A stretch of 64,000 nucleotides of DNA from Eubacteriales bacterium (GTDB taxonomy: Bacteria > Bacillota > Clostridia > Oscillospirales > CAG-272): assembly GCA_045659245.1 (NCBI GenBank), contig JAZOWN010000066.1, positions 2,213-66,212 of the forward strand, written 5' to 3'. A model generated the notes under the pieces. It worked only from the letters and a program-made list of their open reading frames with translations, had not been told where the DNA came from and searched no databases. The translations under genes and the position numbers were made by a program. The first letter of the stretch is position 1. Every line of letters starts with the position of its first letter. Below are positions 34,950 through 58,653 of this stretch, piece after piece.

Positions 34950-35004
34950 CTAAAAAAGCCAAAAAACGCTTATGCTACCATTTTAAAATAGCAAAAGCGT
35001 TTTT
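34950..35004 (-). terminator. native spoVT terminator
   Basis: 15-bp stem AAAACGCTTATGCTA / TAGCAAAAGCGTTTT (34963-35003, one mismatch), followed on the minus strand by TTTTTTGGCTTTTTT. Confidence 0.75.
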
Positions 35005-35038
35005 CCTTTTTCTCTGAATTTTCTCTAAAAAAATATGC

Positions 35039-35509
35039 CTAAGCCTCGGTGTGTCTGCCGAGAAAGCCTGCGGCTGTTTGAATGAGCTTGGCTTCCGCAT
35101 CAACCCCAAATACATTATCCCTTTGAGGTTTATCAGCTTCGCTGTCGGATACTGATGCAACACAGCCGATAACGTCTCCCTCGCTTATAATGGGCATAGC
35201 ACATCTTACAAAATGATTTTTGGAGTCGGCAATAACGGGAAGCTTGTCCGTACCCTCTCGCCAACTGTAAAAACCCCTGCCCTCAATAATTTTTTCGATC
35301 TCCTCGGATAAGTTCTTATCGGTATATTCCTTTTTGGAAACACCCGCGCTTGCAATGACCGCATCTCTGTCACTGATTATGACGGAAAGGTTGCAGGTCT
35401 TGTAAAGCGTTTCTGCGTACTTTGATGCGAAGCTTGACAACTCGCCTATGGGAGAGTATTTTTTGAATATGACCTCTCCCTCTCTGTCGGTATATATTTC
35501 AAGCGGGTC
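35039..35509 (-). pseudogene. spoVT: spoVT 3' fragment (about codon 32 to stop) detached from its 5' end by insertion
   Basis: 156 aa DPLEIYTDREGEVIFKKYSPIGELSSFASKYAETLY...PIISEGDVIGCVA...IQTAAGFLGRHTEA. These align by eye with B. subtilis SpoVT from D32 to the C-terminus. The AbrB-type first ~31 codons are missing here. Confidence 0.8.
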
Positions 35510-37270
35510 AACCACGCTGACAACATTGACGCGAAAAACCTTGTCGTGCTGCTTATTCGCACGCTGGACTACCTTGATTTCATAGAAATCTTCGGTTTTT
35601 TCGATATTTTCCGCGTCCTGATCAAAATTTACGGGTATCTCGCTTTCTGTATCGCCAATATTTGCGATCGTTCCGGTTCGGAGTAGCTCGTCCACCTCGG
35701 CTCTTAGCTTGACCTCGATATGATCCTCAAAAACAACCATATGGCTGATAATCAGGTTAATGTCGTTTTTGTCAAGATGATCCTTTTCGAGAATCTCGTT
35801 GAAAACGTCGATGACGGTCTTGGCTACACGGTTGACACGAATCATCGTATTGGTTGTGTCAGATGCCAGCTCAAGCTGATGATGCAACCCCTCAATGTGA
35901 TTCTCGGACTTTTCGATCTCAACGTCGTAAGCCTCTACCGTAACCGAATTTTCCCCGGATTTTGCCGCCGCCTTTGCGCGTTGCTTGACGAGTGAACGCA
36001 AAACCTCGCGCTCTTCTTCAATCTCTTCCATCAGCGCAGCAATTGCATTCTTTCCGGAATCCATGTGCTTCGGTTCGTTCTTGATGACCTCCTCCAGTAT
36101 CTTAATCATAGAGGCAGAGTTATCACGGACCTTTCGGATATACTCCTTTAGCACCTCATCAAGAAAATCAACGTCAACCTTATGGGTTGTGCATCCGCTC
36201 TTCAAGCCGCGTCTGTGATAGTTACCACAGATATAGGAACGGCTCAGGTTCTCTCGGTTTCTGGCAAACATCGGTGCGCCGCAATCACCGCAAACAAGAA
36301 ATCCAGAATAGTTATTTTCGTTTTTCTTGATGCCGCGGTAGTGCGCCTTTGCCCTTAGCTTCAACTGCTCCTGCACCGTCGTAAACGTGCGATAATCCAC
36401 AATGGGCGTGTGGAAATTCTCGAACACAATCTGCTCACTTTCGTGAACAGGAACCATCGGTCCATTGATGGTCTTGCGCTGATACTTTCTCGAGCGAAGC
36501 GTTCCGATATAAAAATCGTTTTTCAGAATCTCTCCCACCGTCTGGATGCTCCAAACATCCTTGACCACTGCGTGATACTCATCTCCCATCGCCTCCTTTC
36601 GAGCCTTTTCTCGCATTCTGGCTGTGGGGATTTTTTGCGCGGTTAGGTGTTCGGCAATCTTCTTGTAGCCCCAACCGTTTATGTAGAGGCGGAAAATCTC
36701 GCGAACCACCTCGGCGGCGGGCTCGTCAACCTCGTAGATCATCTTCTTGGTGTTCTTCATTACGTAGCCATAAGGTACGGAACAAATCCACTCTCCGCGC
36801 TGCTGACGGCTCGCAATAACTGCCGAGACCTTTTCACTGGCATCGGTTACGGGCATTTCGTTGAACATGAAGAACATCTTCGTCTTCATAAGATCGCCCT
36901 TCTTCATAGAGTTCGTGTCAAGCGAATCTCCAATCGAAATAATGCGAAGCCCAAGCTCCATAAAATCCTCAAACTCGGACATGCCCTTGCTGAGTCTTCT
37001 TGAAAAACGGCTCAGATCCTTTACGATTAAAATATCATACTCACCGTTTATCAGCTTTGGTCTCAGCTCTCCGTGATAACACGGACGCTTTTCAAAGCTG
37101 TATCCCGACTTATCGCGGTCTTCAAAGTAATCAACCGTACTCGTGGGAAAGTGAAGCTTGCAATACTCGTCAATGATTGCCTTCTGGTTTTCAATACTCG
37201 TATTCGTTCCGTTTCGCTCTTCATCGACCGAAATACGGGTATAAGCGGCAATTTTGTATCTTTCCACCAT
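35039..37270 (-). CDS. large serine recombinase (resolvase + recombinase + zinc-ribbon + DUF4368-like regions), reading in frame into the spoVT 3' fragment
   Basis: N-terminus AAYTRISVDEE...DRDKSGYSFEKRP...VKDLSRFSR (catalytic Ser/Arg pattern), Cys-rich zinc ribbon (CGDCGAP...CGNYHRRG), coiled coil, and DINLIISHMVVFEDHIEVKL. No stop codon before the junction at about 35510. Confidence 0.85.
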   Translation of the reverse strand: MVERYKIAAYTRISVDEERNGTNTSIENQKAIIDEYCKLHFPTSTVDYFEDRDKSGYSFEKRPCYHGELRPKLINGEYDILIVKDLSRFSRRLSKGMSEFEDFMELGLRIISIGDSLDTNSMKKGDLMKTKMFFMFNEMPVTDASEKVSAVIASRQQRGEWICSVPYGYVMKNTKKMIYEVDEPAAEVVREIFRLYINGWGYKKIAEHLTAQKIPTARMREKARKEAMGDEYHAVVKDVWSIQTVGEILKNDFYIGTLRSRKYQRKTINGPMVPVHESEQIVFENFHTPIVDYRTFTTVQEQLKLRAKAHYRGIKKNENNYSGFLVCGDCGAPMFARNRENLSRSYICGNYHRRGLKSGCTTHKVDVDFLDEVLKEYIRKVRDNSASMIKILEEVIKNEPKHMDSGKNAIAALMEEIEEEREVLRSLVKQRAKAAAKSGENSVTVEAYDVEIEKSENHIEGLHHQLELASDTTNTMIRVNRVAKTVIDVFNEILEKDHLDKNDINLIISHMVVFEDHIEVKLRAEVDELLRTGTIANIGDTESEIPVNFDQDAENIEKTEDFYEIKVVQRANKQHDKVFRVNVVSVVDPLEIYTDREGEVIFKKYSPIGELSSFASKYAETLYKTCNLSVIISDRDAVIASAGVSKKEYTDKNLSEEIEKIIEGRGFYSWREGTDKLPVIADSKNHFVRCAMPIISEGDVIGCVASVSDSEADKPQRDNVFGVDAEAKLIQTAAGFLGRHTEA

Positions 37271-37300
37271 ATTAAATGCTCCTTTCTTTTTTCAAACAAC

Positions 37301-37329
37301 ATTGTAACATATTTTCATTTCGAAGTCAA
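37301..37329 (-). promoter_or_regulatory. recombinase promoter
   Basis: Minus strand TTGACT (37329-37324), 17-nt spacer, TACAAT (37306-37301). The palindrome ACAATATTGT at 37349-37358 lies just upstream. Confidence 0.6.
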
Positions 37330-37358
37330 TATGACAGAAAGAAAATTTACAATATTGT

Positions 37359-37595
37359 CTATCCATCCGCCACTGCCTCCTGTCTTGCTTGAAGCAGATG
37401 ATTGTGAGAAAGAAGATTTTGGGTAAGAGTAGCCAGATCGCCGTTGCCGGATTCAAAAACCACAACCTTGTAGTCTTTGACTTTATATTGGCTGAAGATT
37501 GGTTTCAAGCTTTCGCGAAGCGCATCGTCACGTGACTCACTGCGAGTGAGCCATATAGACACATATTTCTTTTCATCATAAACGTTCATTTCCAT
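37359..37595 (-). CDS. small hypothetical protein upstream of the recombinase (possible directionality factor)
   Basis: 78 aa from the ATG after AAGGGGTG (MEMNVYDEKKYVSIWLTRSE...). No recognised domain. The functional role is suggested by position only. Confidence 0.4.
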   Translation of the reverse strand: MEMNVYDEKKYVSIWLTRSESRDDALRESLKPIFSQYKVKDYKVVVFESGNGDLATLTQNLLSHNHLLQARQEAVADG

Positions 37596-37692
37596 ATAAC
37601 TCACCCCTTTCACTGAATTATTGACAATGATATGATTTTGTATTCAGATAATACTTATAGTAAAAACATTGGTTTTCGTTTATTCAAGCATT

Positions 37693-37721
37693 ATTATATC
37701 ATATAATATATTTTTTGTCAT
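37693..37721 (-). promoter_or_regulatory. promoter candidate for the 78-aa gene / recombinase unit
   Basis: Minus strand ATGACA (37721-37716), 17-nt spacer, TATAAT (37698-37693), in a very AT-rich context. Confidence 0.35.
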
Positions 37722-37777
37722 CGGCGCAGGTATGCCGAGAATGTGCAATATAAATTTCAAATATTTTATAACGCTGA

Positions 37778-38110
37778 TCAACCGCAACGTGCGTCCTTTT
37801 TAAAAGTGCTAATAATACTTTCCATCACACTCAAATCTCTTCCTTTCATTGTGAGGCATAGTCTTTCAAGCAATTCTACTTGTTCATCAGTTAAAAACTT
37901 CATTCCAAGCCTATACCCATCCATAACGTGTATTCCGCCTCCACCACCTTGAGTCGTATAAATTGGATACGAGCATTCGAGAACTTTAATATCATACCTT
38001 ATTGTTCTCTCACTTACGCAAAATTCGTTGCTAAGACTTTTTACAGTATCATGTCTACGAATACATAATCTTTCAAGAATTTTCATTCTTCTCTCTGCTG
38101 TATCTCTCAT
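37778..38110 (-). CDS. HTH_11 (YafY N-terminal-like) transcriptional regulator without a WYL domain
   Basis: 110 aa: ILERLCIRRHDTVKSLSNEFCVSERTIRYDIKVLE...PIYTTQGGGGGIHV. Same architecture as the protein at 63175-63540. Confidence 0.6.
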   Translation of the reverse strand: MRDTAERRMKILERLCIRRHDTVKSLSNEFCVSERTIRYDIKVLECSYPIYTTQGGGGGIHVMDGYRLGMKFLTDEQVELLERLCLTMKGRDLSVMESIISTFKKDARCG

Positions 38111-38133
38111 ACACTCCTATCCTCCTTTCAACA

Positions 38134-38195
38134 AATCAAAAAAAGGACGCCGATAAAAAGATACCCAAAATTGAGTACCTATTTATCGGCGTCCT
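38134..38195 (-). terminator. strong terminator after the zinc-ribbon gene
   Basis: 14-bp perfect stem AGGACGCCGATAAA / TTTATCGGCGTCCT (38144-38195), followed on the minus strand by T7. Confidence 0.75.
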
Positions 38196-38312
38196 CTCGT
38201 GTATGTCCGGTTTAAACGTCTCGATTTGTCGTGTATGACCTGATAAGGATTTACATAGGCTCTGTTTCAACCCGACCTTACCGTCGTTACACCATTCAGT
38301 TTTTTTGCTTGA

Positions 38313-38516
38313 TTAAAAGATTGTTACCTGCTCCACAGGCGCGTAAATGTCAACTTGCGTGTGCCGTCTTCCCATTTGTTTCGATACGATAGCGCATCGG
38401 CATCTTGGACATTCGTATTTTGTAATACCCTCGTTATTCATAAATCCAATGAGCTTTTGCGAACAGTTACTACAATAAATCTCCGCAGGTTTCCAATCGT
38501 TATTTACTCGCTTCAT
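38313..38516 (-). CDS. small zinc-ribbon protein
   Basis: 67 aa with CSNC...CPRC cysteine pairs. Confidence 0.5.
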   Translation of the reverse strand: MKRVNNDWKPAEIYCSNCSQKLIGFMNNEGITKYECPRCRCAIVSKQMGRRHTQVDIYAPVEQVTIF

Positions 38517-38532
38517 ATTTCCTCCCGAAAGG

Positions 38533-39129
38533 TCAATACATCTTTATACAACTGACAAGCACACCCTGTATATCACACTCTTTCACTATTATATCTTTCA
38601 TGGTTTTATTTTCAGGGTGGAGTATTATTTTACTTCCGTCTTTGAAAAATCGTTTTAGCGTTGTTTCTCCGTCTACAAGAGCCACGATTATATCTCCATC
38701 ATTGGCGTAGTTTTGTTTCTTGACTACAATAAGATCACCTTTTCTTATTCCTATATCTATCATACTGTCACCGTATGTGCGAAGCATAAACATCTCACCC
38801 TCGCCAAACAGCTCAGTTGGGAAGGCGTATGTTTCCTCTATCTCCTCAACGCCTATATTTGGCGCTCCGCAAGCGACAGAACCTACGAGGGGTATCATAG
38901 TAGTCCCACCGTGCTTTAGATTTGACGGTATTTCTATATTGCCGAGATTGGTACGTGTAATGCGTCCTGCGTTCTCAAGGGCGTTTACATATCGGAATAC
39001 GGAGCTTAACGTCGTCATTCCCGTTTCGTGCATTATCTGACGGTAGCTTGGAGACTTTCCTTTTTCCATTTGATACGTTGTTATATAACGCTCCACTTTT
39101 TCAAGCATATCCTGGTTTAATGTTCTCAT
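38533..39129 (-). CDS. LexA-like S24 peptidase repressor
   Basis: 198 aa from the ATG after GGAGAG. Winged HTH (SPSYRQIMHETGMTTLSSVFRYVNALE), VACGAP cleavage-site region, GDSM serine and VVKK lysine. Confidence 0.8.
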   Translation of the reverse strand: MRTLNQDMLEKVERYITTYQMEKGKSPSYRQIMHETGMTTLSSVFRYVNALENAGRITRTNLGNIEIPSNLKHGGTTMIPLVGSVACGAPNIGVEEIEETYAFPTELFGEGEMFMLRTYGDSMIDIGIRKGDLIVVKKQNYANDGDIIVALVDGETTLKRFFKDGSKIILHPENKTMKDIIVKECDIQGVLVSCIKMY

Positions 39130-39147
39130 AAAATGCTCTCCTTTCAC

Positions 39148-39170
39148 AAAGAGAACTTTGCGTTCTCTTT
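39148..39170 (-). promoter_or_regulatory. operator palindrome in the lexA-like leader
   Basis: AAAGAGAAC-N5-GTTCTCTTT: perfect 9-bp inverted repeat with a GAAC/GTTC core, between the -10 and the RBS. Confidence 0.6.
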
Positions 39171-39183
39171 AAGCGGTGAGCAT

Positions 39184-39212
39184 ATTATAGCATCTTTCTA
39201 TACTAATGTCAA
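39184..39212 (-). promoter_or_regulatory. lexA-like gene promoter
   Basis: Minus strand TTGACA (39212-39207), 17-nt spacer, TATAAT (39189-39184). Confidence 0.65.
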
Positions 39213-39242
39213 AAAACACTGCACAATGAACTGTGCAGTGTT
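39209..39242 (-). terminator. terminator of the WYL regulator gene
   Basis: AACACTGCACA / TGTGCAGTGTT stem (39215-39242) followed on the minus strand by T6. Overlaps the next -35. Confidence 0.7.
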
Positions 39243-39250
39243 TTAGAATT

Positions 39251-40234
39251 TTAAATATATGCTTTTGATATCTCTTTAACAAAATCCTCGAACTGTTCTC
39301 TTACAGTATTGGGAGTTAATATTTTTACCTTTCCTCTTGTACCCGCAAGCCATGAGAAGAACGTGGGACTTATCTGAATTTCAACGTTACTTTTGAGGCT
39401 ATCGTCTGATGCCCTTTGAATCTTGATGTCCTCTCCAAACTTATCGTATATATCGTCCAGCATATCTCGTTCAAACTGAAGCTCTATATATTTCAGTTCG
39501 CCGCCAAACATAGAAAATACTTGCTTACGGTATTTTTCTACGCTGAAGTTCGACAATTCGGGACGAGGCGTAACGGGCGTTATTTCTACCCTTACGTTCT
39601 CGATCCTATCCATACGATAATTTGTGATTCCGTCATGATTATCGTGGTAACATACAAGATAATAGTTATCTCTGTTCCAAACCATAACCAAGGGATTTAC
39701 TATGTAACGAGCTCCGTCTTTGCGATACACTCTTTGCTTATTCTCATCAAGTGAAAAATACTTGAAGGATATTTGCATACCTTCTTTAATAGCTTTTTCT
39801 ATTGCATCAATATTATATATTATCTGACTGTTGCTTCGCTTGGGCATATCAAAGAATATAATATTTGATGAAATATCTTCGGCTTGATATTTTCCTACGA
39901 GTCCTGACAAGTTTTCAGCAATAACGCTCTTTTGCCCTACTGTGAGCTTTGAAGCTGCGAGTGCGTTTGCGAACATAGAAAGCTCTGCCGTGGCAAATTT
40001 GCGGTCAACAACGTAATAGCAATTCTGTATGCGTTTGTATGACAGCACCTCATAACCGTATTCATTAAGCAGGTTAATATCGTCATACAACGTATTTCGA
40101 GATACCTCGATTCCGCTTTGAGCGAGCATTTCCATTATTTCACTCGTGCTTAATACGTGTTCCTCGTCCGTATATCTGCAAAGGAGATCGTAGAGGACAA
40201 GTAATCTTATTTTTTGCTCTCTGTTAGTTGGCAT
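39251..40234 (-). CDS. HTH-WYL domain transcriptional regulator (BrxR/CapW/YafY-like architecture)
   Basis: 327 aa: N-terminal wHTH (STSEIMEMLAQSGIEVSRNTLYDDINLL), central WYL core (WNRDNYYLVCYHDNHDGITNYRMDRIENV) and a C-terminal extension. Confidence 0.75.
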   Translation of the reverse strand: MPTNREQKIRLLVLYDLLCRYTDEEHVLSTSEIMEMLAQSGIEVSRNTLYDDINLLNEYGYEVLSYKRIQNCYYVVDRKFATAELSMFANALAASKLTVGQKSVIAENLSGLVGKYQAEDISSNIIFFDMPKRSNSQIIYNIDAIEKAIKEGMQISFKYFSLDENKQRVYRKDGARYIVNPLVMVWNRDNYYLVCYHDNHDGITNYRMDRIENVRVEITPVTPRPELSNFSVEKYRKQVFSMFGGELKYIELQFERDMLDDIYDKFGEDIKIQRASDDSLKSNVEIQISPTFFSWLAGTRGKVKILTPNTVREQFEDFVKEISKAYI

Positions 40235-40328
40235 ACATACACTCCATATATTATAAAGATTTACTGTTTAAGCATTTTGTGAGTGTCGAAGTACTTATTG
40301 TCATTTTTTGTATTTTGTATATAAAATC

Positions 40329-40357
40329 ATTTTACCACACCGGTTTCTAAAAGTCAA
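40329..40357 (-). promoter_or_regulatory. WYL regulator promoter
   Basis: Minus strand TTGACT (40357-40352), 17-nt spacer, TGG-TAAAAT (40334-40329). Confidence 0.55.
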
Positions 40358-40390
40358 GTGTTAGGTTGTTGTTTTACTTTTTACTTATTG

Positions 40391-41449
40391 TTACTCTTGT
40401 TTTAAATTAGCATATATGTAATCATCCAAGCCCTTATACTTCGCATCCCAGACGTAAGTTCCAAACTTGAAGTCCATACTGTCGAGAAGTTCCATGAGAG
40501 AGAGAAAACCGTTTCGAACGTTTGGATTTGTCAGCATATCCATATCAAATGCTGTTTTTATCTCGTGCAGTCCCCTGCTCTTCAGTATCTCAAGAGTTTT
40601 CCTCAAATGAGAAAGCGTGTTGACACCCGGAACGGAAATGACTGTCAAGCCTGTAAGTACGTGAACGACGTCTGCCTTCAGCGGTCCTTCTGTAAGTACG
40701 GCAAAATCCTTAATCTCGCCGACTACGTGAACCCAGCCTTCTGCCTTACATCCGTCTTTTCGCTCCGAGCTTGATACCCATCTGTACTTTCTGTTATCCG
40801 TCTCATCACGCCTTACTTGAAGCCCCTGTATATTTCCGTCAGCATCACGAACAGGTATGAGTATTCCGCGTTTACCTGAAACAAACGTCCACACATCTTG
40901 ATCGTTTTTGTAAAATCCCGGAACACCTGCGAGATAGTGACCTTCCATAAGTAACTGTTTTGCAAGTATATTCATGCCTACTATCGGCGTGGTTTTGTAT
41001 CCAAAGCGCTGTATATCTCTGTCTGTCAACCCTCTGTTTATAAGATTTTCTCTGTGGTCGGGAGCAAGAGAAAGCTTTTGGAGCAATGCAGAATAAGTTT
41101 TGTTCCTCGTTACCACATCGGTCAATGGATATTCCGTAACTGTTTCCACAACAGCCTTATCTTTATACGGATTTGAATATCCGTTTGAAGAAATATGTGC
41201 CTTAACAATTTCTCTTGCCTTTTCGTATGACACGCCCATAATCAAGGAATACAGATCTATTACTCCACCGCTTATGCCGCATTTAGGACAGCGATATACG
41301 TTCTTAATGAGATTTATATTCAAATGCTTATCTCTCGTATTATAATCACAGCACGGACAATGCACATAATATGAGCTTCGTCCGCTTTCGGGATACGGTA
41401 TTCCAATAAGAGGAATAATATCCCACATAGTGTATTCCGGTTTATACAT
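40391..41449 (-). CDS. phage/plasmid primase-like protein (zinc-ribbon + Toprim-like)
   Basis: 352 aa with N-terminal CPCC...CPKCG zinc ribbon (VHCPCCDYNTRDKHLNINL..YRCPKCGISGGVIDLY) and a C-terminal VLTEGPLKADV Toprim-like acidic motif. Confidence 0.6.
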   Translation of the reverse strand: MYKPEYTMWDIIPLIGIPYPESGRSSYYVHCPCCDYNTRDKHLNINLIKNVYRCPKCGISGGVIDLYSLIMGVSYEKAREIVKAHISSNGYSNPYKDKAVVETVTEYPLTDVVTRNKTYSALLQKLSLAPDHRENLINRGLTDRDIQRFGYKTTPIVGMNILAKQLLMEGHYLAGVPGFYKNDQDVWTFVSGKRGILIPVRDADGNIQGLQVRRDETDNRKYRWVSSSERKDGCKAEGWVHVVGEIKDFAVLTEGPLKADVVHVLTGLTVISVPGVNTLSHLRKTLEILKSRGLHEIKTAFDMDMLTNPNVRNGFLSLMELLDSMDFKFGTYVWDAKYKGLDDYIYANLKQE

Positions 41450-41461
41450 ATTTTCCTTTCC

Positions 41462-41492
41462 GGAGAGTGACAGTACGCCACTCTCCTTTTTT
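41462..41492 (+). terminator. plus-oriented hairpin + T-run inside the minus-strand operon (possible antisense insulator)
   Basis: GGAGAGTG (41462-41469) pairs with CACTCTCC (41479-41486), followed by T6 on the plus strand only. On the minus-sense RNA the hairpin abuts the primase RBS. Confidence 0.35.
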
Positions 41493-41493
41493 A

Positions 41494-42195
41494 TTATGCC
41501 ACTACTCTATTCTCAAGAATACATGTGGCTGCTTCTTTAGCCGCAATGTTTTTAGTCTGCCCGTTTGCAAGATGATTTATTGCCGCCATATCTATCTCCA
41601 TAACCTCGCCCAACGTTTTGCCGGAATACTTTGCTAACGGATACATAAAAGCAAGCGCCTTGTTGTATTTCTCACCAGAAGTTATTTCTTTGTCGGTTTG
41701 CTCTTGCTCAGAGGCATTTATTGTATCCTCTATCGCTTTCAAGGTCTCGTTTTTCCTTTCATCATCAAACAAAGAGCCGTCAAACCCGTCCGTCGGTTCT
41801 TCATCCTCGTTACTGTCAAATACAGAATACTGCGAACCGAATCCTGCATAATTCAACGCAAATCCGATAGCCGAGGACTGCGCCCAAAAGGCTCTCTCAC
41901 TATATGCCGTAGCCTCGGATACGTAAGCATCCACTGCATCCTTATAGTTGAAATACACTCTCGCACGAGCCATAAAGTTTTCTTTTAGTGGAGTGACCTG
42001 TACCGCAATTCTTCCCTCGGGATATTTGAGTCTGAACCAAGCTATCTTTATGGGTGTGGGCAGTTTTTTCCAGCTACTCCCCGTAGTAAGATCGGTTCGT
42101 TCCTCTGCAAACACCGACGGATCAAATCCGTGTGTCTGATTGAGTCCCGCAAGTATTTTAAATTGCGCCGCTTTCGCCTTTTCAACGTCTGTCAT
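41494..42195 (-). CDS. hypothetical protein (candidate ssDNA-annealing partner of the YqaJ exonuclease; unproven)
   Basis: 233 aa in the recombination/replication operon. No motif recognised with confidence. Confidence 0.35.
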   Translation of the reverse strand: MTDVEKAKAAQFKILAGLNQTHGFDPSVFAEERTDLTTGSSWKKLPTPIKIAWFRLKYPEGRIAVQVTPLKENFMARARVYFNYKDAVDAYVSEATAYSERAFWAQSSAIGFALNYAGFGSQYSVFDSNEDEEPTDGFDGSLFDDERKNETLKAIEDTINASEQEQTDKEITSGEKYNKALAFMYPLAKYSGKTLGEVMEIDMAAINHLANGQTKNIAAKEAATCILENRVVA

Positions 42196-42659
42196 TTCTT
42201 CTCCTCCGCAGGTATCTTAATAAGGATAAGCGTATCACGGTACTGAAGCCAAACGGGGATAAATCCGTTGATTACATTGATTATCTGCTCCTTATAGGAA
42301 TTTTGAGAGGTTGCTTTAAAATGTCCGAAAACGTTCGCTATACCTTTATAAGAATCTCCCAAAGCTGATTTTGCGGTCTTACGCGCATTGTTTATTGCAT
42401 CGTCCTTACTGTCTTTTACAAGATGCTCCTTTTCAAGACCGCCCAAGTAATCAAACACCTGATTGAAGTGCTTGAGCATCGTTTCAATATTGTCGGTTAC
42501 AGGCGCGGTCATACAATAAATTCGCAGTGACTCTATAACACCTATGCGGTATCTGAGCTCCTGTACTCTTTCAAGATCCGAAAGTGGAAGCATATTTTGC
42601 TTCACAGCCTGCTCAACTATATTCTGTTTTTCTTTGTAAATATCAAGTATTTTTGCCAT
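42192..42659 (-). CDS. hypothetical helical protein
   Basis: 155 aa, translationally coupled (ATGA) to the next gene. No recognised domain. Confidence 0.4.
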   Translation of the reverse strand: MAKILDIYKEKQNIVEQAVKQNMLPLSDLERVQELRYRIGVIESLRIYCMTAPVTDNIETMLKHFNQVFDYLGGLEKEHLVKDSKDDAINNARKTAKSALGDSYKGIANVFGHFKATSQNSYKEQIINVINGFIPVWLQYRDTLILIKIPAEEKK

Positions 42660-42660
42660 A

Positions 42661-44847
42661 TTATATCCTTTCGTTTATGTCCAGCTCCTCAAGGCGTTTT
42701 GCCAAGCAGGTGCCTCGCTTTTCTGTGTCGTTTTTTTGAATTGATATACACAACGCTCTGCGTTCTCCAACAATGGTAACTTTATCTTTTCCACGGGTAA
42801 TTGCGGTGTATATCAGAGGACGGTTAAGCATAGTGTAGTGGGCGCATTGCAAATTGATAATGACAGACTTGTACTCTGATCCTTGGGATTTGTGTATAGT
42901 AGAAGCATATCCAAGGTCAAGCATATCAAGGTCTGACGAGTCATATTCCTTAATTCTTCCGTCTCCGAAATCAACAAGAACGTATGCCTCGTTTTCGACT
43001 GCCGTAATCTTCTTTACGTATCCCACGTCACCGTTGCTAACGTCCTCAAAATTTTTTATTTGCATTACCTTATCACCCTCACGAAAAATTCGCTTTCCAA
43101 GAGTCACCTCAGCTTTTCCTTTTTTGTGAGGATTTATTATATTTTGAATGTGAGTGTTAAGAGCGTTTACACCCGTCTCCGTCTTCTGTCTGAACGGTGA
43201 GAGAAGTACCACGTTATCAATGCCGTGTTTCTCCGTTTCCTTTATGTAGAGGTTGGCAATAAGCCCTGCCGATTCACTCAGATTGGGAGAGTCAATAAAA
43301 CGAAAATCCTCTCCGTACTCAAGATGGAACGTACCGTTTCGTATAAGCTTTGCATTAACTGCGATTCGCCTTCCTGCGTTTTGTCTGAAGACCTTATCAA
43401 GTCTTACAAAAGGAATGCAACACGATGACAGCATCTCACTGAGTACTGCACCCGGTCCTACCGAGGGGAGCTGTCCCGCATCTCCAACCAATACGAGCTG
43501 TGCACCGTCTTTTTCTGACTCCAGTAAGCGACACGCAAGATAAATATCAAGCATTGATACCTCGTCAACAAGTATCAGCTCAGCATCAAGCTCCGATACC
43601 TCTCCAAGATATCCGTCGTCTCCCGCAAAGAGTCCAAGCGCTTTGTGAACGGTATAGGCAACGTGTCCCGTGGATTGCTCAAGTCTGCGAGCTGCACGTC
43701 CCGTGGGAGCGCAACAGCATATAGCTTTGTCTGGATATTTTCGTTTGAATATATCAAGTATCGCTCTCTGTATAAGTGTTTTTCCCGTTCCGGGACCTCC
43801 AGTTATGATGCACAGACCGTTTGTGAGCGCTGTCTTAACGGCAGAACGCTGTTCAGGTGCCAGCTTCAATCCGAGCAGTCCTTCTTCAGCGTCAAGCTCT
43901 GCTTCAATATTCCCATCGAAGCGAACCTTAGTATTCCATAGCTTTGCGTGTATCATATTGGCAAGAGCTTCTTCCTTTTCGGCGGTTTCTGTTCTATATG
44001 CATTGCCAAGATAAGATTTCAGTTTTCCTGTATTCTGAAGCAGATAGGCTCTTTCAACCACCTTTTCCATAGTAAGCTCGGGAGTGTCTAACAGCTTTAT
44101 TGCGGAATTTATAAAATCGTGCTTTTCAAGACAGAGGTGTCCCCTGCTCTCCGCATCCCGAAGAGCATATAACAGCCCCTCGTCTATTCGTTCCGCCGCC
44201 GTCTTACTCATTCCCATGCTCTGCGCTATTTTGTCAGCCGTCTGAAATCCTATCCCCGTAAGCTCACAAAGTCTGTACGGGTGCTTTTGCGCTATCTCCA
44301 TAGCCTTGCTTCCATATTCGGTATATAGCTTTACAGCTCTGTTGGCAGAGATCCCGTGGGGCGTTAAAAACGCCACCACGTCACGCGCTCCACGGTTAGC
44401 AATATACGAATCGCATATTTTTCTAAGCTTACCCTCACTGATACCGTGTATCTCCAATAGTCTTTTCGGATCTTTATCCAACACCTCAAGCGTATCGTCA
44501 CCGAACGTATCGTAGATTCGTTGAGCAATAACGGGACCTATTCCCTTTATCTGCCCAGACGTCAGATACGACACTATGCTGTCTCGATTTGGTATAATTT
44601 TCTCCTCGTAGGACTCAACCTCAAATTGCAGACCGAACTTGGGATTTTTGCTCCATTCCCCCTTCATTTGATATTTCAGATTTTCTGATATGGGAAGGCA
44701 ATAACCCACTGCCTTTATCTGTTCTAAGAGCCGTCCTGTTTTATCCCGTATATTCTCGCAAGGCTTATATACCGCTACCATATACGAGCTTGGCAGTATC
44801 TCCTGCGGACTTGACGGATACAGTAGCTTTTCAAAGGTACAAAGCAT
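42661..44847 (-). CDS. RecD-like SF1 DNA helicase (RecD2-type)
   Basis: Walker A ITGGPGTGKT, Walker B LILVDEVSM, HhH-like N-terminal region and a C-terminal SH3-like plus YASTIHKSQGSE motif. Start placed at the ATG after AAAGGAGA (the tracked start is a TTG inside the previous gene end). Confidence 0.85.
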   Translation of the reverse strand: MLCTFEKLLYPSSPQEILPSSYMVAVYKPCENIRDKTGRLLEQIKAVGYCLPISENLKYQMKGEWSKNPKFGLQFEVESYEEKIIPNRDSIVSYLTSGQIKGIGPVIAQRIYDTFGDDTLEVLDKDPKRLLEIHGISEGKLRKICDSYIANRGARDVVAFLTPHGISANRAVKLYTEYGSKAMEIAQKHPYRLCELTGIGFQTADKIAQSMGMSKTAAERIDEGLLYALRDAESRGHLCLEKHDFINSAIKLLDTPELTMEKVVERAYLLQNTGKLKSYLGNAYRTETAEKEEALANMIHAKLWNTKVRFDGNIEAELDAEEGLLGLKLAPEQRSAVKTALTNGLCIITGGPGTGKTLIQRAILDIFKRKYPDKAICCCAPTGRAARRLEQSTGHVAYTVHKALGLFAGDDGYLGEVSELDAELILVDEVSMLDIYLACRLLESEKDGAQLVLVGDAGQLPSVGPGAVLSEMLSSCCIPFVRLDKVFRQNAGRRIAVNAKLIRNGTFHLEYGEDFRFIDSPNLSESAGLIANLYIKETEKHGIDNVVLLSPFRQKTETGVNALNTHIQNIINPHKKGKAEVTLGKRIFREGDKVMQIKNFEDVSNGDVGYVKKITAVENEAYVLVDFGDGRIKEYDSSDLDMLDLGYASTIHKSQGSEYKSVIINLQCAHYTMLNRPLIYTAITRGKDKVTIVGERRALCISIQKNDTEKRGTCLAKRLEELDINERI

Positions 44848-44864
44848 TTTTCTCCTTTCTGAAC

Positions 44865-45902
44865 TCAAACCGCCTCACGCATTATTTTAAGTTTCCTGCC
44901 CGTCGATGTCTGGACAAGCTCCTGATATATCTCGGGGTATTCCTTTTTAAGTCTTGCCGTATCGGTTCTGTTCTGTGTTTTTGTTACGTAATCAATAAGT
45001 ACTCTGCCATCGGGTGACTCAAACACACCGTGCTCGTGAGAACCCATTGCATCAATTATCCGCACTGAATGTGCTTCAATAGCCTCCTGTATTCTTTTTA
45101 TTTCTTTATTGTGCGCCTCAACTTCATCCTGAAGCGTTAAAATTCTTCTGATTGGCTTTGCGAATTTGCCTGAAAATTCTATTGTAGGAAGACTCGGATC
45201 ACTGACGGGATATATACGTGCCAAGGACTCAAGAGCAAGACCGGGATCAACGTCGTCCATATTGGGTGGCTTGTCCTTCTCCAAACTCCATATCCACTCC
45301 TCAAGCTTACTGAAAATTATCCCTTCCTTTACGCTATCTCTTTCTATGCAGGGATATGCATGATCCTTTTCGGGATTGTTGCCCCACACGGTGGAAAATG
45401 CGCCTATATTAACGTCTGCTACGGCAAGATAATATCTCAGCTGAAGCTCGTAATAAATAGGATATGCTCCCTTTGCCCACTCGTGAGCTTTATGATAACT
45501 ACAGCTTTTACACTCAAGTATGCCTTTTTCACCGTCACTCTTTCTTATATAGCGGCGGTCAAAATCTGCAAGCGCGTACGGAATGTCTGCGTGACGGTAC
45601 ATTATTTTATCGTCAATGACCTTATCGCCTGTTTTTCTTCCGTACCAATGAGCCGCTATGGGTTCAAGAAGATTACCCATTTCAAGCTGTGTCTCATTCA
45701 TTTTCTTGGCAGGACTCATCCTACCTTTCTTTATAAGCCAAAGTTCTTTTGGTGTTATCCACGGTGAAACTCCGAATATTGCCGCAATATCACTGCCGCC
45801 AACGGTATACGGAATATCTCCTCTCGGTCCGTGCATGCGGCATTCGAGCCAACGCTTTCGGGACATTCCCGTGGTATCACACAGCGGTATAGGTGCCGAC
45901 AT
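44865..45902 (-). CDS. YqaJ-like viral recombinase exonuclease (PD-(D/E)XK)
   Basis: TVGGSDIAAIFGVSPWITPKELW N-terminal signature. 345 aa. Confidence 0.75.
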   Translation of the reverse strand: MSAPIPLCDTTGMSRKRWLECRMHGPRGDIPYTVGGSDIAAIFGVSPWITPKELWLIKKGRMSPAKKMNETQLEMGNLLEPIAAHWYGRKTGDKVIDDKIMYRHADIPYALADFDRRYIRKSDGEKGILECKSCSYHKAHEWAKGAYPIYYELQLRYYLAVADVNIGAFSTVWGNNPEKDHAYPCIERDSVKEGIIFSKLEEWIWSLEKDKPPNMDDVDPGLALESLARIYPVSDPSLPTIEFSGKFAKPIRRILTLQDEVEAHNKEIKRIQEAIEAHSVRIIDAMGSHEHGVFESPDGRVLIDYVTKTQNRTDTARLKKEYPEIYQELVQTSTGRKLKIMREAV

Positions 45903-47044
45903 CAGTAATCCACCGGCTTTGCGAGATCGTAATCACGCCAATTCAGCTTCAAAGCGCGAGCCATACTCTCCTCAAGAGCAATAAGCTTACTTTCAGGAGT
46001 CTTGTCGCACTTCAACTGATACGGTATTTCCTGCAAAGCAAAGAAAACGTCGTGAGCAGTAGCCACACCACCGCCATAGGTCATCTCAAACCGCGAAATT
46101 GCTTCAACAGCCTGCTTTTTAGGCATAGCCAGTTTCTTGCAAATACGTGTCATGGCATTTATGGGATAGCTCAGAACTGTTTTCTCAAGCTCTTCGAGAC
46201 GATGAATACCGTCTTCGTATTGAGCAAATAGCTGTTCGAGGGCTTTTTCAAAGTCTGCAACCGTCTTTTTATTGCGATGATCTACATCAATACAACCACC
46301 TATGTTTATCGAATATCCGTTTCCAACCAGCAAAGCCGAAACCTTAGCTGAAGATATTCCTATATCCGATGTTGTAAATCTTACCCCAGGAGTCATACGG
46401 CGAATTATTCCGCCTTTGCCGCGAGACTCAAGCAATCTTGAATATGTGTCAAGAAGGTCATTTCGCTGGTCGGGCAAGCTCCAAGAAGCGCTTGTAATAG
46501 CATGGTCGCTATATCCGCTATTAAACTCATTGCCGGGGAAACGCTCATCAAGCTTTTGCTGTAAAGCGGTCAGAAGCTCCTTTATGGGCAATACCGAATA
46601 GTCTGATTCATCACCGGAATGAATAGCCGAAACCTTTTCGTCACGTATCAGCACCAGTGCGTCTGTTGTCGAAAGATTCAGACAATCGTTCACTACGCGA
46701 GCAAGAAGCGGACGCTCAAGTCTTGGCAGAGATGAGCCATTTATCTTTGCGCGGTCAAGCATAGTTTTGTATGCTGTTGATCGCATAGGATAAACATCGC
46801 CGCCAACGGCTATCGCAAGACCGAGGTTTTTTACCGTATCCTTAACTGCCTCCTCGCTTATCCCGAAAGCAAATCTGTCGGGGTTCAAGTAAAGTTCAGA
46901 TTCCTCATGCAAGGGTTCTACCTGAAGATCCTTTATCTTGCACCGAAACCATTTTGAATTTTCGTTTTGTTCTCTATGAAAGTTCATTATCATAGGGAAC
47001 GAATTGAAGGTTGTGGAATAATTATCCATACATACGTTTTGCAT
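45902..47044 (-). CDS. conserved phage/plasmid protein, possibly DUF932-like
   Basis: 380 aa, first gene after promoter/leader module A. The family assignment is a weak recollection only. Confidence 0.3.
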   Translation of the reverse strand: MQNVCMDNYSTTFNSFPMIMNFHREQNENSKWFRCKIKDLQVEPLHEESELYLNPDRFAFGISEEAVKDTVKNLGLAIAVGGDVYPMRSTAYKTMLDRAKINGSSLPRLERPLLARVVNDCLNLSTTDALVLIRDEKVSAIHSGDESDYSVLPIKELLTALQQKLDERFPGNEFNSGYSDHAITSASWSLPDQRNDLLDTYSRLLESRGKGGIIRRMTPGVRFTTSDIGISSAKVSALLVGNGYSINIGGCIDVDHRNKKTVADFEKALEQLFAQYEDGIHRLEELEKTVLSYPINAMTRICKKLAMPKKQAVEAISRFEMTYGGGVATAHDVFFALQEIPYQLKCDKTPESKLIALEESMARALKLNWRDYDLAKPVDY

Positions 47045-47082
47045 TTTTATGCTCCTTTCTTTTTTGCGGTGTTTCCACTTTA

Positions 47083-47120
47083 ATATATAACAAAAACCGC
47101 CAATCCACAGACTGACGGTT
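47083..47120 (-). terminator. second leader hairpin + U-run of module A
   Basis: Minus strand AACCGTC-N12-GGCGGTT followed by TTTTGTTATAT, about 70 nt upstream of the ATG at 47044. Confidence 0.45.
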
Positions 47121-47144
47121 TATGCTTTTATTTGCCTGTAAACG

Positions 47145-47184
47145 AAAAGTGCCAATATCACCCTTGGGCAATACTGGCACTTTT
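47145..47184 (-). promoter_or_regulatory. conserved leader hairpin of module A
   Basis: Minus-sense AAAAGUGCCAGUAU...AUAUUGGCACUUUU forms 14 bp including one G-U that pairs only in the minus-sense RNA. Its base is shared with the module B hairpin. Confidence 0.55.
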
Positions 47185-47221
47185 AAAATCTGATAAACTT
47201 TAATTATTCTTAGATAATTTT

Positions 47222-47310
47222 GATACTTTACGTAGATATTATACCAAAGAAAATTTACTCCGTCAAGGCTTTGCCTAAAGTTTGCGTACTATTGGCGTAA
47301 TATTGGCGAA
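47222..47310 (-). repeat. promoter/iteron module A (copy 1 of 2)
   Basis: Minus strand: 11-bp tandem repeats CGCCAATATTA / CGCCAATAGTA / CGCAAACTTTA (47308-47276), TTGACG (47266-47261), 17 nt, TGG-TATAAT (47243-47238), 5 nt, box CGTAAAGTATC (47232-47222). Confidence 0.8.
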
Positions 47311-47315
47311 ATACT

Positions 47316-47579
47316 TTAATATGGAACCATATCATTCATGAAACTCCAATTCTCGATGGGCAATTTCACAAAATCAGGATTATTGGCTTTACACACATCC
47401 TCTAATGCTTCGCGAATGCCACAACGGCTGCAAACGTATATATCTGCGCGCCTACTCAGCGCATTACGAAGAAGTGTCGGCGTCATTATGTCACCACACC
47501 TCGGGCAAGGTAAAATTTCTCCTGACTTTTGTCTCATGTAGTAATTTTTCACTATTTCGTTAGTACGTAAAAAACTCAT
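47316..47579 (-). CDS. small zinc-ribbon protein
   Basis: 87 aa with CPRCG...CSRCG. Confidence 0.5.
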   Translation of the reverse strand: MSFLRTNEIVKNYYMRQKSGEILPCPRCGDIMTPTLLRNALSRRADIYVCSRCGIREALEDVCKANNPDFVKLPIENWSFMNDMVPY

Positions 47580-48025
47580 AATTGTTCCTCCACCGATTCT
47601 ATTTGATCCTCAAACTCTTCATAGGTTTCGGGAATAACTCCGTATTCCGCTCTGACGTTACCTAATTCTTCGTCCCAAACTGAAAGATAACATTTTTCTT
47701 TTTTGAGCTTGTCGTTCTCATTAAGCTCTTTATAAAAGATTCGTTTCTCTTCCTCGTCAAATGGCTTCGGCAAGGAATAGCACACGCCAACACCGTCAAA
47801 CTGAAAATATGCGGCTCCGTAACCTATGAGGTCATCGGATTCTTTTTGTGGCTGTTTATCCTCGTCTAATATTTTTTCTCCGTCTTCATTGCGAACATAG
47901 TGCCAACCGCTACGTCTACCGCAACGGTTACACGATTCCCATTCTTCGAAAGTCCTGCAATCAAATTCTACCGTAAGTACTCCGCCACAGCGGGGACACC
48001 TTTCATATGTAATACTTGAGCTCAC
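47576..48025 (-). CDS. zinc-ribbon protein
   Basis: 149 aa with CPRCGG...CNRCG at the N-terminus. Coupled to its neighbours by overlapping start and stop codons. Confidence 0.5.
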   Translation of the reverse strand: MSSSITYERCPRCGGVLTVEFDCRTFEEWESCNRCGRRSGWHYVRNEDGEKILDEDKQPQKESDDLIGYGAAYFQFDGVGVCYSLPKPFDEEEKRIFYKELNENDKLKKEKCYLSVWDEELGNVRAEYGVIPETYEEFEDQIESVEEQL

Positions 48026-48225
48026 GATGCACGCTCCTTCCCTTTTTTATCGAAGTTAAGCTCGTAAACGATCTCACTTATAGCCTTGTCGTCGTCCCAT
48101 TTAGCCGTTGCTGTTTCTCTTGTGGGGCCCGCGCCGTAGTGAACTGAAACTATGCCATTATGTATTTGCATAAGCACGTCTTTTCTTACAGCACAAACCA
48201 CCGCCAAATTACCAAGTTGTTTCAT
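48022..48225 (-). CDS. hypothetical protein
   Basis: 67 aa, overlaps the next start. No recognised domain. Confidence 0.35.
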   Translation of the reverse strand: MKQLGNLAVVCAVRKDVLMQIHNGIVSVHYGAGPTRETATAKWDDDKAISEIVYELNFDKKGKERAS

Positions 48226-48240
48226 ATATGCTCCTTTCTT

Positions 48241-50415: not shown

Positions 50416-50416
50416 A

Positions 50417-51900: not shown

Positions 51901-51919
51901 TTACTTTCTCCTTTTCTTA

Positions 51920-52192
51920 CTATGCGCATTTTAAACTCTGCGCTACATTCGAATGCGGAATCAGAGAGACGTCATAAACACATCGCTCCGTTTCAAAGCA
52001 TACCTTGGTTTCACTTTGCTGAAGTATTTTTGTCACTTGCGGTGTTCGAATAATCCTACCGCAATAAAGAATAACTGATCTCGCACCTTCCTTTATAGGA
52101 AACACGAGACTGCCGCTGATGTGCATTATACTCTTTGCACTGAGTTTTTTTACATGTAATCCGCCGGAGTTTATATTTTTAAGTTCCAGCAT
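51920..52192 (-). CDS. hypothetical protein
   Basis: 90 aa from the ATG after AAAGGAGAG. No recognised domain. Confidence 0.35.
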   Translation of the reverse strand: MLELKNINSGGLHVKKLSAKSIMHISGSLVFPIKEGARSVILYCGRIIRTPQVTKILQQSETKVCFETERCVYDVSLIPHSNVAQSLKCA

Positions 52193-52251
52193 AATCTTCT
52201 CTCCTTTCACTTTGTATCATTAAAGGGCAACTCTTACAGTTGCCCTCATCT

Positions 52252-54813: not shown

Positions 54814-54825
54814 AGCTTACTCCTC

Positions 54826-56712: not shown

Positions 56713-56714
56713 TT

Positions 56715-57461: not shown

Positions 57462-57462
57462 A

Positions 57463-57840: not shown

Positions 57841-57926
57841 TATTATTCCTCCTTGAAAGAAACATAGGACGCACACCACCCAAATTCAGATGATGTGCGC
57901 CCCTTGCGCTATTTACCTTTTGACCG

Positions 57927-58646: not shown

Positions 58647-58653
58647 AAAGCTA

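Follow-up and report, generated by a model that had tools for sequence, protein, structure and literature searches.

The window analysed here, a 64,000-nucleotide stretch of DNA from an Eubacteriales bacterium, carries an open reading frame (ORF) of 743 amino acids (aa) made up of a large serine recombinase (aa 1-587), SpoVT residues 32 to the end, and the spoVT stop codon (Table 1). Its Pfam domains are Resolvase (aa 7-161), Recombinase (185-305), Zn_ribbon_recom (322-379), and SpoVT_C (610-742); PF00239, PF07508, and PF13408 all score above their Pfam cut-offs, as is characteristic of large serine recombinases, and the nearest solved relative is the SPbeta integrase YokA (PDB sequence match, E = 3e-19). 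SpoVT homology begins at SpoVT Asp32, equivalent to ORF residue 588 and window position 35509, both in tblastn with B. subtilis SpoVT and in phmmer against PDB 2W1T. The initial annotation had described a stop-free frame across the junction (...VVSVV|DPLEIY) and the acquisition of 156 aa of SpoVT, and both observations hold: there is a single ORF in which SpoVT homology starts exactly at the junction, and the 156-aa SpoVT-derived part is recovered by the SpoVT_C match and by the alignments from Asp32. A SpoVT transcription factor requires a complete AbrB-like swapped-hairpin domain together with the GAF-like domain, and only residues 32 to the end are present; lacking the first half of the AbrB-like domain, the 743-aa ORF is not a functional SpoVT. 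In the AF2 model of the window protein, long, paired helices are predicted at residues 367-495; pLDDT stays below 50 over residues 538-603 and reaches 85-90 in the SpoVT_C domain. In this predicted structure, the GAF-like domain hangs on a flexible, low-confidence linker of ~65 aa.

Table 1. Features of the recombinase-spoVT locus, with positions in the window.
Feature	Position	Strand	Basis
Terminator-like hairpin 3' of the spoVT stop	34961..35005	-	Strand folding, z = -3.7
Fused recombinase-SpoVT ORF, 743 aa, attL junction	35039..37270	-	ORF list, Pfam, tblastn, phmmer
Host spoVT codon 32 to stop: second half of AbrB-like domain and GAF-like SpoVT_C	35039..35507	-	Pfam, tblastn, phmmer
B' half-site of attB, first ~23 bases of host spoVT part	35485-35507		Part of 35039..35507
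Inferred crossover dinucleotide GA, first two bases of the Asp588/SpoVT Asp32 codon	35508..35509	-	Inferred from relatives
P' half-site of attP kept in attL (GTCAATGTTGTCAGCGTGGTT), overlapping the last 7 recombinase codons	35510..35530	-	Consensus of 79 junctions
Recombinase part: resolvase catalytic domain, recombinase domain, zinc ribbon, coiled coil, variable linker, attP-arm-encoded ...DKVFRVNVVSVV	35510..37270	-	Pfam, PDB match, AF2
Integrated mobile element, left end at the junction, right end (attR) beyond the window	35510..64000		GC drop, no spoVT N-terminus, gene content
Sigma-70-like promoter match TTGACT-17-TG-TACAAT just 5' of the recombinase start	37301..37329	-	Consensus match only
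Conserved ORF of 84 aa just 5' of the recombinase	37359..37613	-	tblastn in relatives

Inside the element, the GC content falls from ~0.47 to 0.34-0.45. Neither a regular-expression search nor tblastn found the spoVT N-terminus (first 31 codons) in the 64-kb window, indicating that the right end of the element lies outside it. The host gene is split at codon 31/32, and the 31-codon and C-terminal halves, when rejoined, read ...RIREG|DPLEIY..., matching intact spoVT (L207, positions 6502-7032; PDB 2W1T); the element thus interrupts a sporulation gene that its precise excision would restore. Among the closest relatives, identity to the window is 94-98.5% over the recombinase part and only 57-92% over the SpoVT part, a mosaic boundary at the junction that indicates the same element in the spoVT of different hosts. 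We found no report of spoVT as an attachment site in the literature. In B. subtilis, spoVT is a forespore (sigma-G) gene.

Ten large ORFs between 38.5 and 56.7 kb encode a repressor, a WYL protein, a primase, RecD-like, RecE-like, and PcfJ-like proteins, and AAA5/vWA proteins (PHROGs, Pfam). The same searches of these ten ORFs identified no capsid, tail, or terminase gene, and the element extends past the window; it is not clearly a phage. One relative, L066, is an 11.6-kb non-phage island, and the relatives in viral contigs and phage databases were all prophage ends carrying the fusion, with no free genomes among them. On the host side of the junction, the hairpin after the spoVT stop is predicted also to end the recombinase transcript in the integrated state. 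In ~70 loci, inverted-core and free-form ones (described below) among them, a homolog of the 84-aa ORF sits next to the recombinase on its upstream side. This small protein matches no Pfam family and is a candidate partner of the recombinase, either a directionality factor or a regulator; were it a conventional directionality factor, a change of recombinase isoform would be unnecessary for direction control.

The initial annotation had proposed examining whether homologous elements keep the fusion, and they do. The same in-frame fusion is present in ~215 of 238 homologous proteins. Of the 80 best genome loci (46-98% identity), 75 have SpoVT-C directly downstream of the recombinase, and one of these 75, L078, contains an internal frameshift. 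SpoVT-C is intact in all fused loci, and the linker before it varies widely in length and sequence between relatives. Across 45-100% divergence, no stop codon occurs between the zinc-ribbon domain and the crossover in ~240 proteins and 90 loci, except in the frameshifted L078. Carriers include the cultured Ruminococcus flavefaciens strains ATCC 19208 and 007c. A stop just before the att core or a read-through error had been named as observations that would count against the fusion; there is no such stop, and the junction and frame recur in hundreds of independent assemblies, these cultured strains included, leaving a practically negligible chance of a sequencing or assembly artifact. The fusion design is real and widespread. 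Database entries for it are routinely mis-annotated: some are named "stage V sporulation protein T", others simply a recombinase.

The att sites could be delineated in relatives. In the complete relatives L066, L054, L211, and L213, attP is a near-perfect palindrome of ~2 x 21 bp centered on a GA dinucleotide, located inside the coding end of the recombinase, 23-28 codons before its true stop. Both junctions of one element are present in L066, where they share the core GGCGACCCGTT and allow attP to be reconstructed as a palindrome; intact attP DNA is seen in L054, L211/L212, and L213. The sites in relatives agree with those expected of large serine recombinases, which are short (~40-50 bp), with imperfect inverted-repeat arms around a 2-bp crossover and only a short identity between attP and attB. 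The window itself carries only the P' and B' halves. Its P' half-site mirrors the P arm of L066, L054, L211, and L213, and its GA is as far from the conserved distal motif as is the symmetry center of the reconstructed or intact palindromes. A consensus built from 79 distinct attL junctions shows conservation of at least 80-90% for GTCAATGTTATCAG, third codon positions included, and third positions on the host side are variable. The recombinase ORF reads through attP as ...VNVIS-x-Gly-Asp-Pro, and spoVT, read over that core in a matching frame, encodes Gly31-Asp32-Pro33, so that integration yields two in-frame hybrids. The placement of attP within the 3' coding end of the recombinase, as proposed in the initial annotation, is therefore borne out in L066, L054, L211/L212, and L213, and by homology in the window. 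The accompanying claim that the recombinase has no stop of its own needs correction, as the stop exists on the far side of attP.

A minority of homologs (~8 of 238) carry attP variants with an inverted core, whose symmetry center is TC instead of the GA of the other class. These variants insert in the opposite orientation and gain no SpoVT domain; the orientation has arisen at least five times and stays rare and shallow. The different centers, GA versus TC, rule out the idea that the two orientations stem from a crossover dinucleotide that is itself palindromic. Homologs of 622-652 aa that could be taken for free forms are in fact opposite-orientation insertions that read into antisense spoVT codons 1-31. 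Because inverted-core forms gain no SpoVT domain, what the two orientations have in common is the loss of the original C-terminal tail and not the gain of a GAF-like domain. This bears on the possibility that the acquired domain is functional on the recombinase, either as a built-in directionality factor or as a sensor or oligomerization module tying excision to sporulation. A recombinase followed by a ~65-aa linker and a folded domain does resemble the engineered integrase-RDF fusions that drive excision (PDB 9DXD), and the strong predominance of the in-frame orientation, like the uniform integrity of SpoVT-C, would fit such a role. However, elements without the domain exist in several lineages, the joining of recombinases more than 94% identical to SpoVT parts of 57-92% identity argues against a co-adapted interface, and no docking is seen in the AF2 model, making a functional SpoVT domain very unlikely. 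The suggestion in the initial annotation that the fusion might bias directionality or act through SpoVT oligomerization is weakened likewise, by the inverted-core variants and by the low-confidence linker.

In free forms, the recombinase ends in GDP followed by 23-28 aa and a stop, forming a ~25-aa, putatively helical tail (P0241, P0242, P0312 with 217 member sequences, P0316, and P0329), and the same tails occur on free forms (P0312, P0241, P0316, P0329) and at 93 attR junctions, as anticipated by the proposal that the excised form takes a different tail from the other element end. The crossover accordingly falls within the recombinase coding region, upstream of the stop, in the free forms and at the 93 attR junctions, and in the window by homology. 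Near-identical elements occur in metagenomes in both free (attP) and integrated forms, implying that the recombinase is probably active. For the window element, we infer the tail from relatives whose recombinases are 46-75% identical, and expect it to follow the pattern F-x-x-A-hydrophobic-x-x-L-x-x-R. For a free-form enzyme, AF2 gave a model of low quality (mean pLDDT 55, shallow alignment), with the tail as a low-confidence helix and no docking seen. L066 has a strong terminator directly behind the tail, L211 and L054 have none there, and such a terminator is thus not taken as a feature of the family.

For tail codons beyond the att arm, dN/dS is 0.16 in pairs less than 10% divergent and 0.32 in pairs 10-25% divergent, and the tail has a constant length and one invariant Arg. 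Judged by these ratios, the tail is under purifying selection. This counts against a neutral account, in which the recombinase needs only its residues up to about aa 535, the linker, the arm-encoded strand, and the tail or SpoVT part are all dispensable, and the att site merely overlaps the ORF. The low AF2 confidence and high variability of the linker (residues 538-603) agree with this account, as does the persistence of inverted-core elements with a junk, antisense-encoded tail, and constraint acting on the att arm as DNA accounts for the conservation of ...VNVIS. The account also has to contend with the absence of stops between the zinc ribbon and the crossover, and with the repeated origin yet continued rarity of the inverted orientation, which suggests that orientation matters. 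We consider the neutral account unlikely, if still worth weighing.

In the integrated element, the tail is encoded at the other end. At attR, SpoVT codons 1-31 are fused to the tail (93 examples, 60 distinct tails, mostly 26-31 aa with GDP counted). A DNA pattern search for attP/attR returned 120 metagenome loci, ~25 of which were false positives from the tetrapyrrole-methylase motif GPGDPELMTLKA, and gave no match in viral contigs; in the protein database there were 679 matches, the best 120 of which were all ~58-aa SpoVT(1-31)+tail hybrids. It could in principle be this hybrid on which tail selection acts, if it were made from the spoVT promoter in lysogens, for instance as a mini AbrB-like protein acting against SpoVT or in its place, with the recombinase tail being incidental. 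Hundreds of such ORFs exist, many still scoring as an AbrB/SpoVT-type domain (PF04014), and in the scar loci L153 and L207 the hybrid is kept beside an intact spoVT without any recombinase. However, half of an AbrB swapped-hairpin domain would be unlikely to fold, and the hybrid cannot form in inverted-core elements such as L160, where the spoVT N-terminus reads into antisense recombinase, yet the inverted-core free form P0290 retains the conserved tail. This last argument rests on P0290 as a single inverted-core free form. Selection for the hybrid is, in our judgment, a highly doubtful explanation.

Because the tail is under purifying selection and is retained in inverted-core elements, where it can be expressed only on the recombinase, it would be a functional part of the free, integration-state enzyme. 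Taken together, we consider it quite probable that the window holds a spoVT-targeting element with attP in the 3' end of its recombinase gene, the isoforms being set by integration state, the tail being functional, and the gain of the SpoVT domain appearing to be mainly a by-product of frame and orientation. In this model, the large serine recombinase would target spoVT at codon 31/32, producing recombinase(1-587)+SpoVT(32-end) at attL, of which the window ORF would be an example, and SpoVT(1-31)+tail (~58 aa) at attR. Two recombinase isoforms would thereby be set purely by the state of the DNA: a free form with a conserved, putatively amphipathic-helix tail, and an integrated form with no tail and a flexibly tethered GAF-like domain. 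Such a switch would probably adjust how active or stable the recombinase is, or how it binds partners, from one state to the other.

Large serine recombinases are prized for genome engineering, and the directionality factors of most are unknown. These elements represent a large natural family that, on integrating, exchanges a C-terminal peptide under selection for a domain of the host, and with their free, integrated, and inverted-core forms it can be tested directly whether activity or direction is under C-terminal control. In Oscillospiraceae and Ruminococcus, spoVT, the gene of a forespore regulator, also emerges as a common target of insertion: among the 80 best species-level genome matches, 75 are fused. 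Its interruption bears on the sporulation ability of these gut bacteria.

Several known systems share parts of this design. The type I (SSV-type) archaeal integrases likewise carry attP inside the integrase ORF, and integration disrupts or alters the gene (PMC6972569). They are tyrosine recombinases that target tRNA genes, and their "suicidal" integration splits the gene into two non-functional parts, whereas the spoVT elements exchange only the last ~25 codons and leave all catalytic and DNA-binding domains intact. Integration-dependent immunity is described, in a summary of the original work, for mycobacteriophages BPs and Brujita and for M. abscessus prophages (Broussard et al., 2013, summarized in PMC8092301). 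As summarized there, the remodeled protein is a repressor, the integrase is a tyrosine integrase, and an ssrA-like degradation tag is removed upon integration; by contrast, the spoVT elements remodel the serine recombinase itself, with no degradation tag evident. In the phiC31 integrase, the extreme C-terminus contacts the directionality factor, and C-terminal Int-RDF fusions reverse the direction of recombination.

The skin/SpoIVCA element, which bears a serine recombinase, interrupts sigK. The SPbeta/SprA-SprB element interrupts spsM. Both resemble the spoVT elements in having a large serine recombinase at one element end and in interrupting a sporulation ORF that precise excision would restore. 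Their targets are mother-cell genes, and the genome of the mother cell is not passed on, whereas spoVT is forespore-specific in B. subtilis, so that developmental excision would strip the element from the germ line unless it persisted and re-integrated. One can imagine, as a rather improbable scenario, that the tailed enzyme of the free circle is integration-competent and the tail-less, SpoVT-fused enzyme of the integrated copy excision-competent or permissive, with the element leaving spoVT at sporulation, riding in the spore as a circle, and re-integrating at germination via the tailed isoform. If true, the state of the DNA would set the direction of recombination, amounting to a self-contained directionality switch, widespread in gut Clostridia, with reversible interruption of spoVT.

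A state-dependent C-terminus in large serine recombinases is not new, the precedent being the SPbeta-like phage Goe14, whose SprA-like serine integrase inserts into B. subtilis spoVK and changes its C-terminus upon integration; its authors speculated that integration falls to the long form and excision to the prophage form (bioRxiv 10.1101/2021.11.22.469490). Both systems combine a large serine recombinase, attP in its own C-terminal coding region, a state-dependent C-terminus, and a sporulation-gene target. They differ in that target (spoVK versus spoVT) and in host, with the spoVT family found in Oscillospiraceae/Ruminococcus-type Clostridia, and the YokA match indicates that recombinases of the SPbeta type and of the spoVT elements are only distantly related. 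In addition, the prophage form of Goe14 is truncated, whereas that of the spoVT elements is extended in frame by 156 host residues including a folded domain, and the spoVT elements form a large family with a tail that appears to be under purifying selection and with recurrent inverted-core variants.

In the window, the recombinase gene of the element and host spoVT are read as a single ORF, in which SpoVT_C follows the full domain set of a large serine recombinase (Resolvase, Recombinase and Zn_ribbon_recom). Homology to SpoVT starts exactly at Asp32, which is ORF residue 588 at position 35509 (tblastn; PDB 2W1T), so that the junction of the initial annotation (...VVSVV/DPLEIY) and its 156-aa host part are correct. 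No spoVT codons 1-31 were found within the window by pattern search or tblastn. GC content falls right of the junction and remains low up to the window end, and the element therefore reaches past base 64000.

The attachment site was rebuilt in silico on a relative, L066, which is present in its entirety (11.6 kb) with both junctions, the right end of the window's own element lying outside the window. From the far junction, attR (...CGCGAGGGCGACCCGTTGCAGACAACGTTGAA...), and the recombinase junction, attL (...GTCAACGTTATCTGTAACGGCGACCCGTTAGAAATC...), attP is reconstructed as GTCAACGTTATCTGTAACGGC-GA-CCCGTTGCAGACAACGTTGAA, a near-perfect palindrome of about 2 x 21 bp with GA at its center. Intact attP DNA of this form is present in loci L054, L211/L212, and L213, and the two halves of the L211/L212 site match the two ends of L066. 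The recombinase frame crosses attP in the reconstruction, which, together with the intact sites, bears out the proposal that attP lies inside the 3' end of the recombinase coding sequence. The arm on the recombinase side, GTCAATGTTATCAG, shows 80-90% conservation over 79 distinct attL junctions, third codon positions included, whereas third positions on the host side vary freely, a pattern that would be expected of a protein-binding DNA site overlapping coding sequence.

Coordinates of the fused ORF, its attachment site, and associated features in the window and in related loci
Feature	Locus	Position	Strand	Basis or remark
Fused recombinase-SpoVT ORF	window	35039..37270	-	ORF listing; single ORF, 743 aa
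Resolvase domain	743-aa ORF	aa 7-161		Pfam
Recombinase domain	743-aa ORF	aa 185-305		Pfam
Zn_ribbon_recom domain	743-aa ORF	aa 322-379		Pfam
SpoVT_C domain	743-aa ORF	aa 610-742		Pfam
attP arm	window	35530-35510	-	comparison with attL junctions of relatives
Inferred crossover GA	window	35509-35508	-	comparison with relatives
Element, part in window	window	35510-64000		left end at junction
Small ORF upstream of recombinase	window	37359-37613	-	
Upstream-ORF homologue	L066	9581-9796		
Upstream-ORF homologue	L211	2204-2410		
Upstream-ORF homologue	L009	8855-9142		
LexA/CI-type S24 repressor	window	38533-39147		
WYL protein	window	39251-40234		
RecD-like helicase	window	42661-44868		
PcfJ-like protein	window	48241-50415		
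AAA5 ATPase and vWA/CobT-like pair	window	52252-56712		
Inverted-core site	L001	11776-11905		
Inverted-core site	L002	3410-3554		
Inverted-core site	L214	2140-2349		
Inverted-core site	L213	1850-1970		

The fusion is kept across homologous elements. With residues 1-587 as query, more than 100 protein clusters of 60-98% identity were retrieved, nearly all of about 740 aa with SpoVT_C, and a second search seeded from another branch gave the same result; in total, in-frame fusions make up about 215 of the 238 proteins. Scanning species-representative genomes gave 554 relatives, and SpoVT-C lies directly 3' of the recombinase in 75 of the 80 best (46-98% identity). Homologues that stop just before the att core, considered in the initial annotation, were not encountered among these 80 loci, where only L078, which has an internal frameshift, shows a stop ahead of the junction. 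A sequencing artefact as the source of the read-through, or a peculiarity of a single genome, is ruled out by these counts, the same fusion occurring in many genomes of Oscillospiraceae, Ruminococcus, and other Clostridia, among them R. flavefaciens ATCC 19208 and 007c, both cultured. Identity to the window in the nine closest relatives is 94-98.5% over the recombinase part but only 57-92% over the SpoVT part, and the same element therefore sits in spoVT of different hosts. On these sequence comparisons, the mosaic boundary is the junction. Separately, two contigs of MAG RGIG3903 (L012 and L014) each carry such a fusion with identical identity values, which could reflect either two copies of spoVT or heterogeneity among strains.

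The free-form ORF runs 23-28 codons beyond Gly-Asp-Pro, and the database contains such proteins (P0241, P0242, P0312, P0316, and P0329; the P0312 cluster has 217 member sequences). A metagenome scan for Gly-Asp-Pro plus the P arm gave 120 loci, 93 of which join spoVT codons 1-31 to the same kind of tail, with 60 distinct tails among them, mostly of 26-31 aa (GDP counted). Among 679 proteins from a profile search, the best 120 are all SpoVT(1-31)-tail hybrids of about 58 aa. These proteins and junctions confirm for relatives that the excised form has a different C-terminal tail, taken from the other element end. Identical tails (e.g., GDPLQTTLNTDFDFLLAFLRLADRLYIK) occur on the free-form recombinase and on SpoVT(1-31), which is direct evidence of the two states of the element. 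The native tail of the window's own element, whose right end lies beyond the window, is presumably of the kind found in relatives. Past the residues that the att arm encodes, tails follow the pattern [FY]-x-x-A-hydrophobic-x-x-L-x-x-R, in which the Arg is invariant. Their dN/dS, 0.16 in close pairs and 0.32 for pairs that are 10-25% divergent, marks the tail as a selected peptide, not run-on translation. A functional significance of its loss on integration is likely but unproven.

An ending ...VNVISxG-SPSRIRIVLLISLG..., which is spoVT codons 31-1 read in antisense and in a shifted frame, is shared by eight protein clusters and by loci L001, L002, and L036. The attP center of these inverted-core relatives is TC where the main class of in-frame fusions has GA, and they lie in the opposite orientation in spoVT because the core reads GGG-TC-GCC, not GGC-GA-CCC. 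They are nested within main-class clades at no fewer than five places, and the inverted P0116 and main-class P0112 share 99% protein and 94% DNA identity, the DNA alignment breaking exactly after ...GTCAGT (AACGGG-TC in one, GACCCT-GA in the other). The simplest reading would be that the attP core has repeatedly been inverted between its palindromic arms. Since inverted-core elements exist without the SpoVT domain, the domain is not needed for the element's existence, and a specific role for it on the recombinase is unlikely. The rarity of the inverted orientation (about 8 of 238) despite its recurrent origin hints that the in-frame orientation may be favored. Comparison of both orientations indicates that tail loss on integration is common to the two. 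The tail might act on the enzyme or in the SpoVT(1-31)-tail hybrid; the inverted-core free form P0290 (L213), with a palindromic attP centered on TC, reads GSP followed by PLITLDNADAFLLTMLALGERLYIKTQ, the conserved tail, and so keeps it where only the recombinase can express it, an argument from a single inverted-core free form that favors the enzyme.

The AF2 model of the window protein (52 aligned sequences, mean pLDDT 70) has a well-folded GAF-like domain (residues 604-743, pLDDT 85-90) and, between it and the recombinase domains, a linker (538-603) with pLDDT below 50; the half AbrB-like domain has no predicted folding onto anything. As modeled, the fusion resembles an enzyme to which an additional domain is flexibly tethered. 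The free-form model is poor (10 sequences, mean pLDDT 55), with the tail helical at low confidence. In phiC31 integrase, the extreme C-terminus contacts the directionality factor, and direction is reversed in integrases with a C-terminally fused RDF; by analogy, a C-terminal swap could plausibly matter. The small ORF directly upstream of the recombinase (68-95 aa; motif ...WL[ST]..E...K..VF.SG..DL...T.NLL.HN) is a conserved module at this place in about 70 related loci, inverted-core and free forms included, and matched no Pfam family. As a candidate directionality factor or regulator, this ORF is the main reason against assuming that the isoform switch alone sets direction.

The element further encodes a primase-like protein and a RecE-like exonuclease; no virion genes (capsid, tail, terminase) were recognized in its part within the window, and it is perhaps not a phage. 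The relative L066, a small non-phage island, encodes a RepA-like ATPase. The free-form (attP) scaffold of an L066-type element, L211, runs 10 kb past the tail (4551-14453) into metabolic genes (MlrC, P-II, ABC transporter, M28 peptidase, and arginase), so that elements whose recombinase modules are 91% identical carry very different cargo.

Other observations concern the spoVT locus. In metagenome loci L207 (204-290; 6502-7032) and L153 (926-1010; ~1541 onward), a SpoVT(1-31)-tail junction is followed by an intact spoVT about 6 and 0.5 kb away, respectively, with no recombinase between them; the 6-kb island of L207 encodes an acyltransferase, an XRE regulator, and a 589-aa ATPase. In L102 (~6020-6118), L152, L142, and L149, spoVT has a further break at about codon 11/12 (.../DDLGRVV..., spoVT forward), after unrelated sequence ending ...TTTTTGGATTCYACTTGACAYAAG, which suggests another type of insertion site within its first codons. 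The window (28935-34897) and L002 (3783-9641) are syntenic in the neighbors of spoVT, which encode a 351-aa protein (surface or transglutaminase-like) and include a dltA/dltC/dltB/dltD-like operon. The orientation of spoVT relative to them is opposite in the two hosts, and each has the element's recombinase end adjoining the dlt-like operon.

The closest precedent is the SPbeta-like phage Goe14 (bioRxiv 10.1101/2021.11.22.469490), where integration brings truncation, whereas the window element gains a folded host domain in frame. In integration-dependent immunity, the repressor gene contains attP, and a tyrosine recombinase serves as integrase (PMC8092301); here, by contrast, the recombinase gene holds attP. 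Integration of SSV-type archaeal elements splits the integrase gene (PMC6972569). We did not find spoVT as an attachment target in the literature. New relative to these systems are spoVT as the insertion target, the in-frame gain of a folded host domain rather than truncation, natural variants with an inverted attP core, and an exchanged tail that, on family-wide evidence, is under selection.
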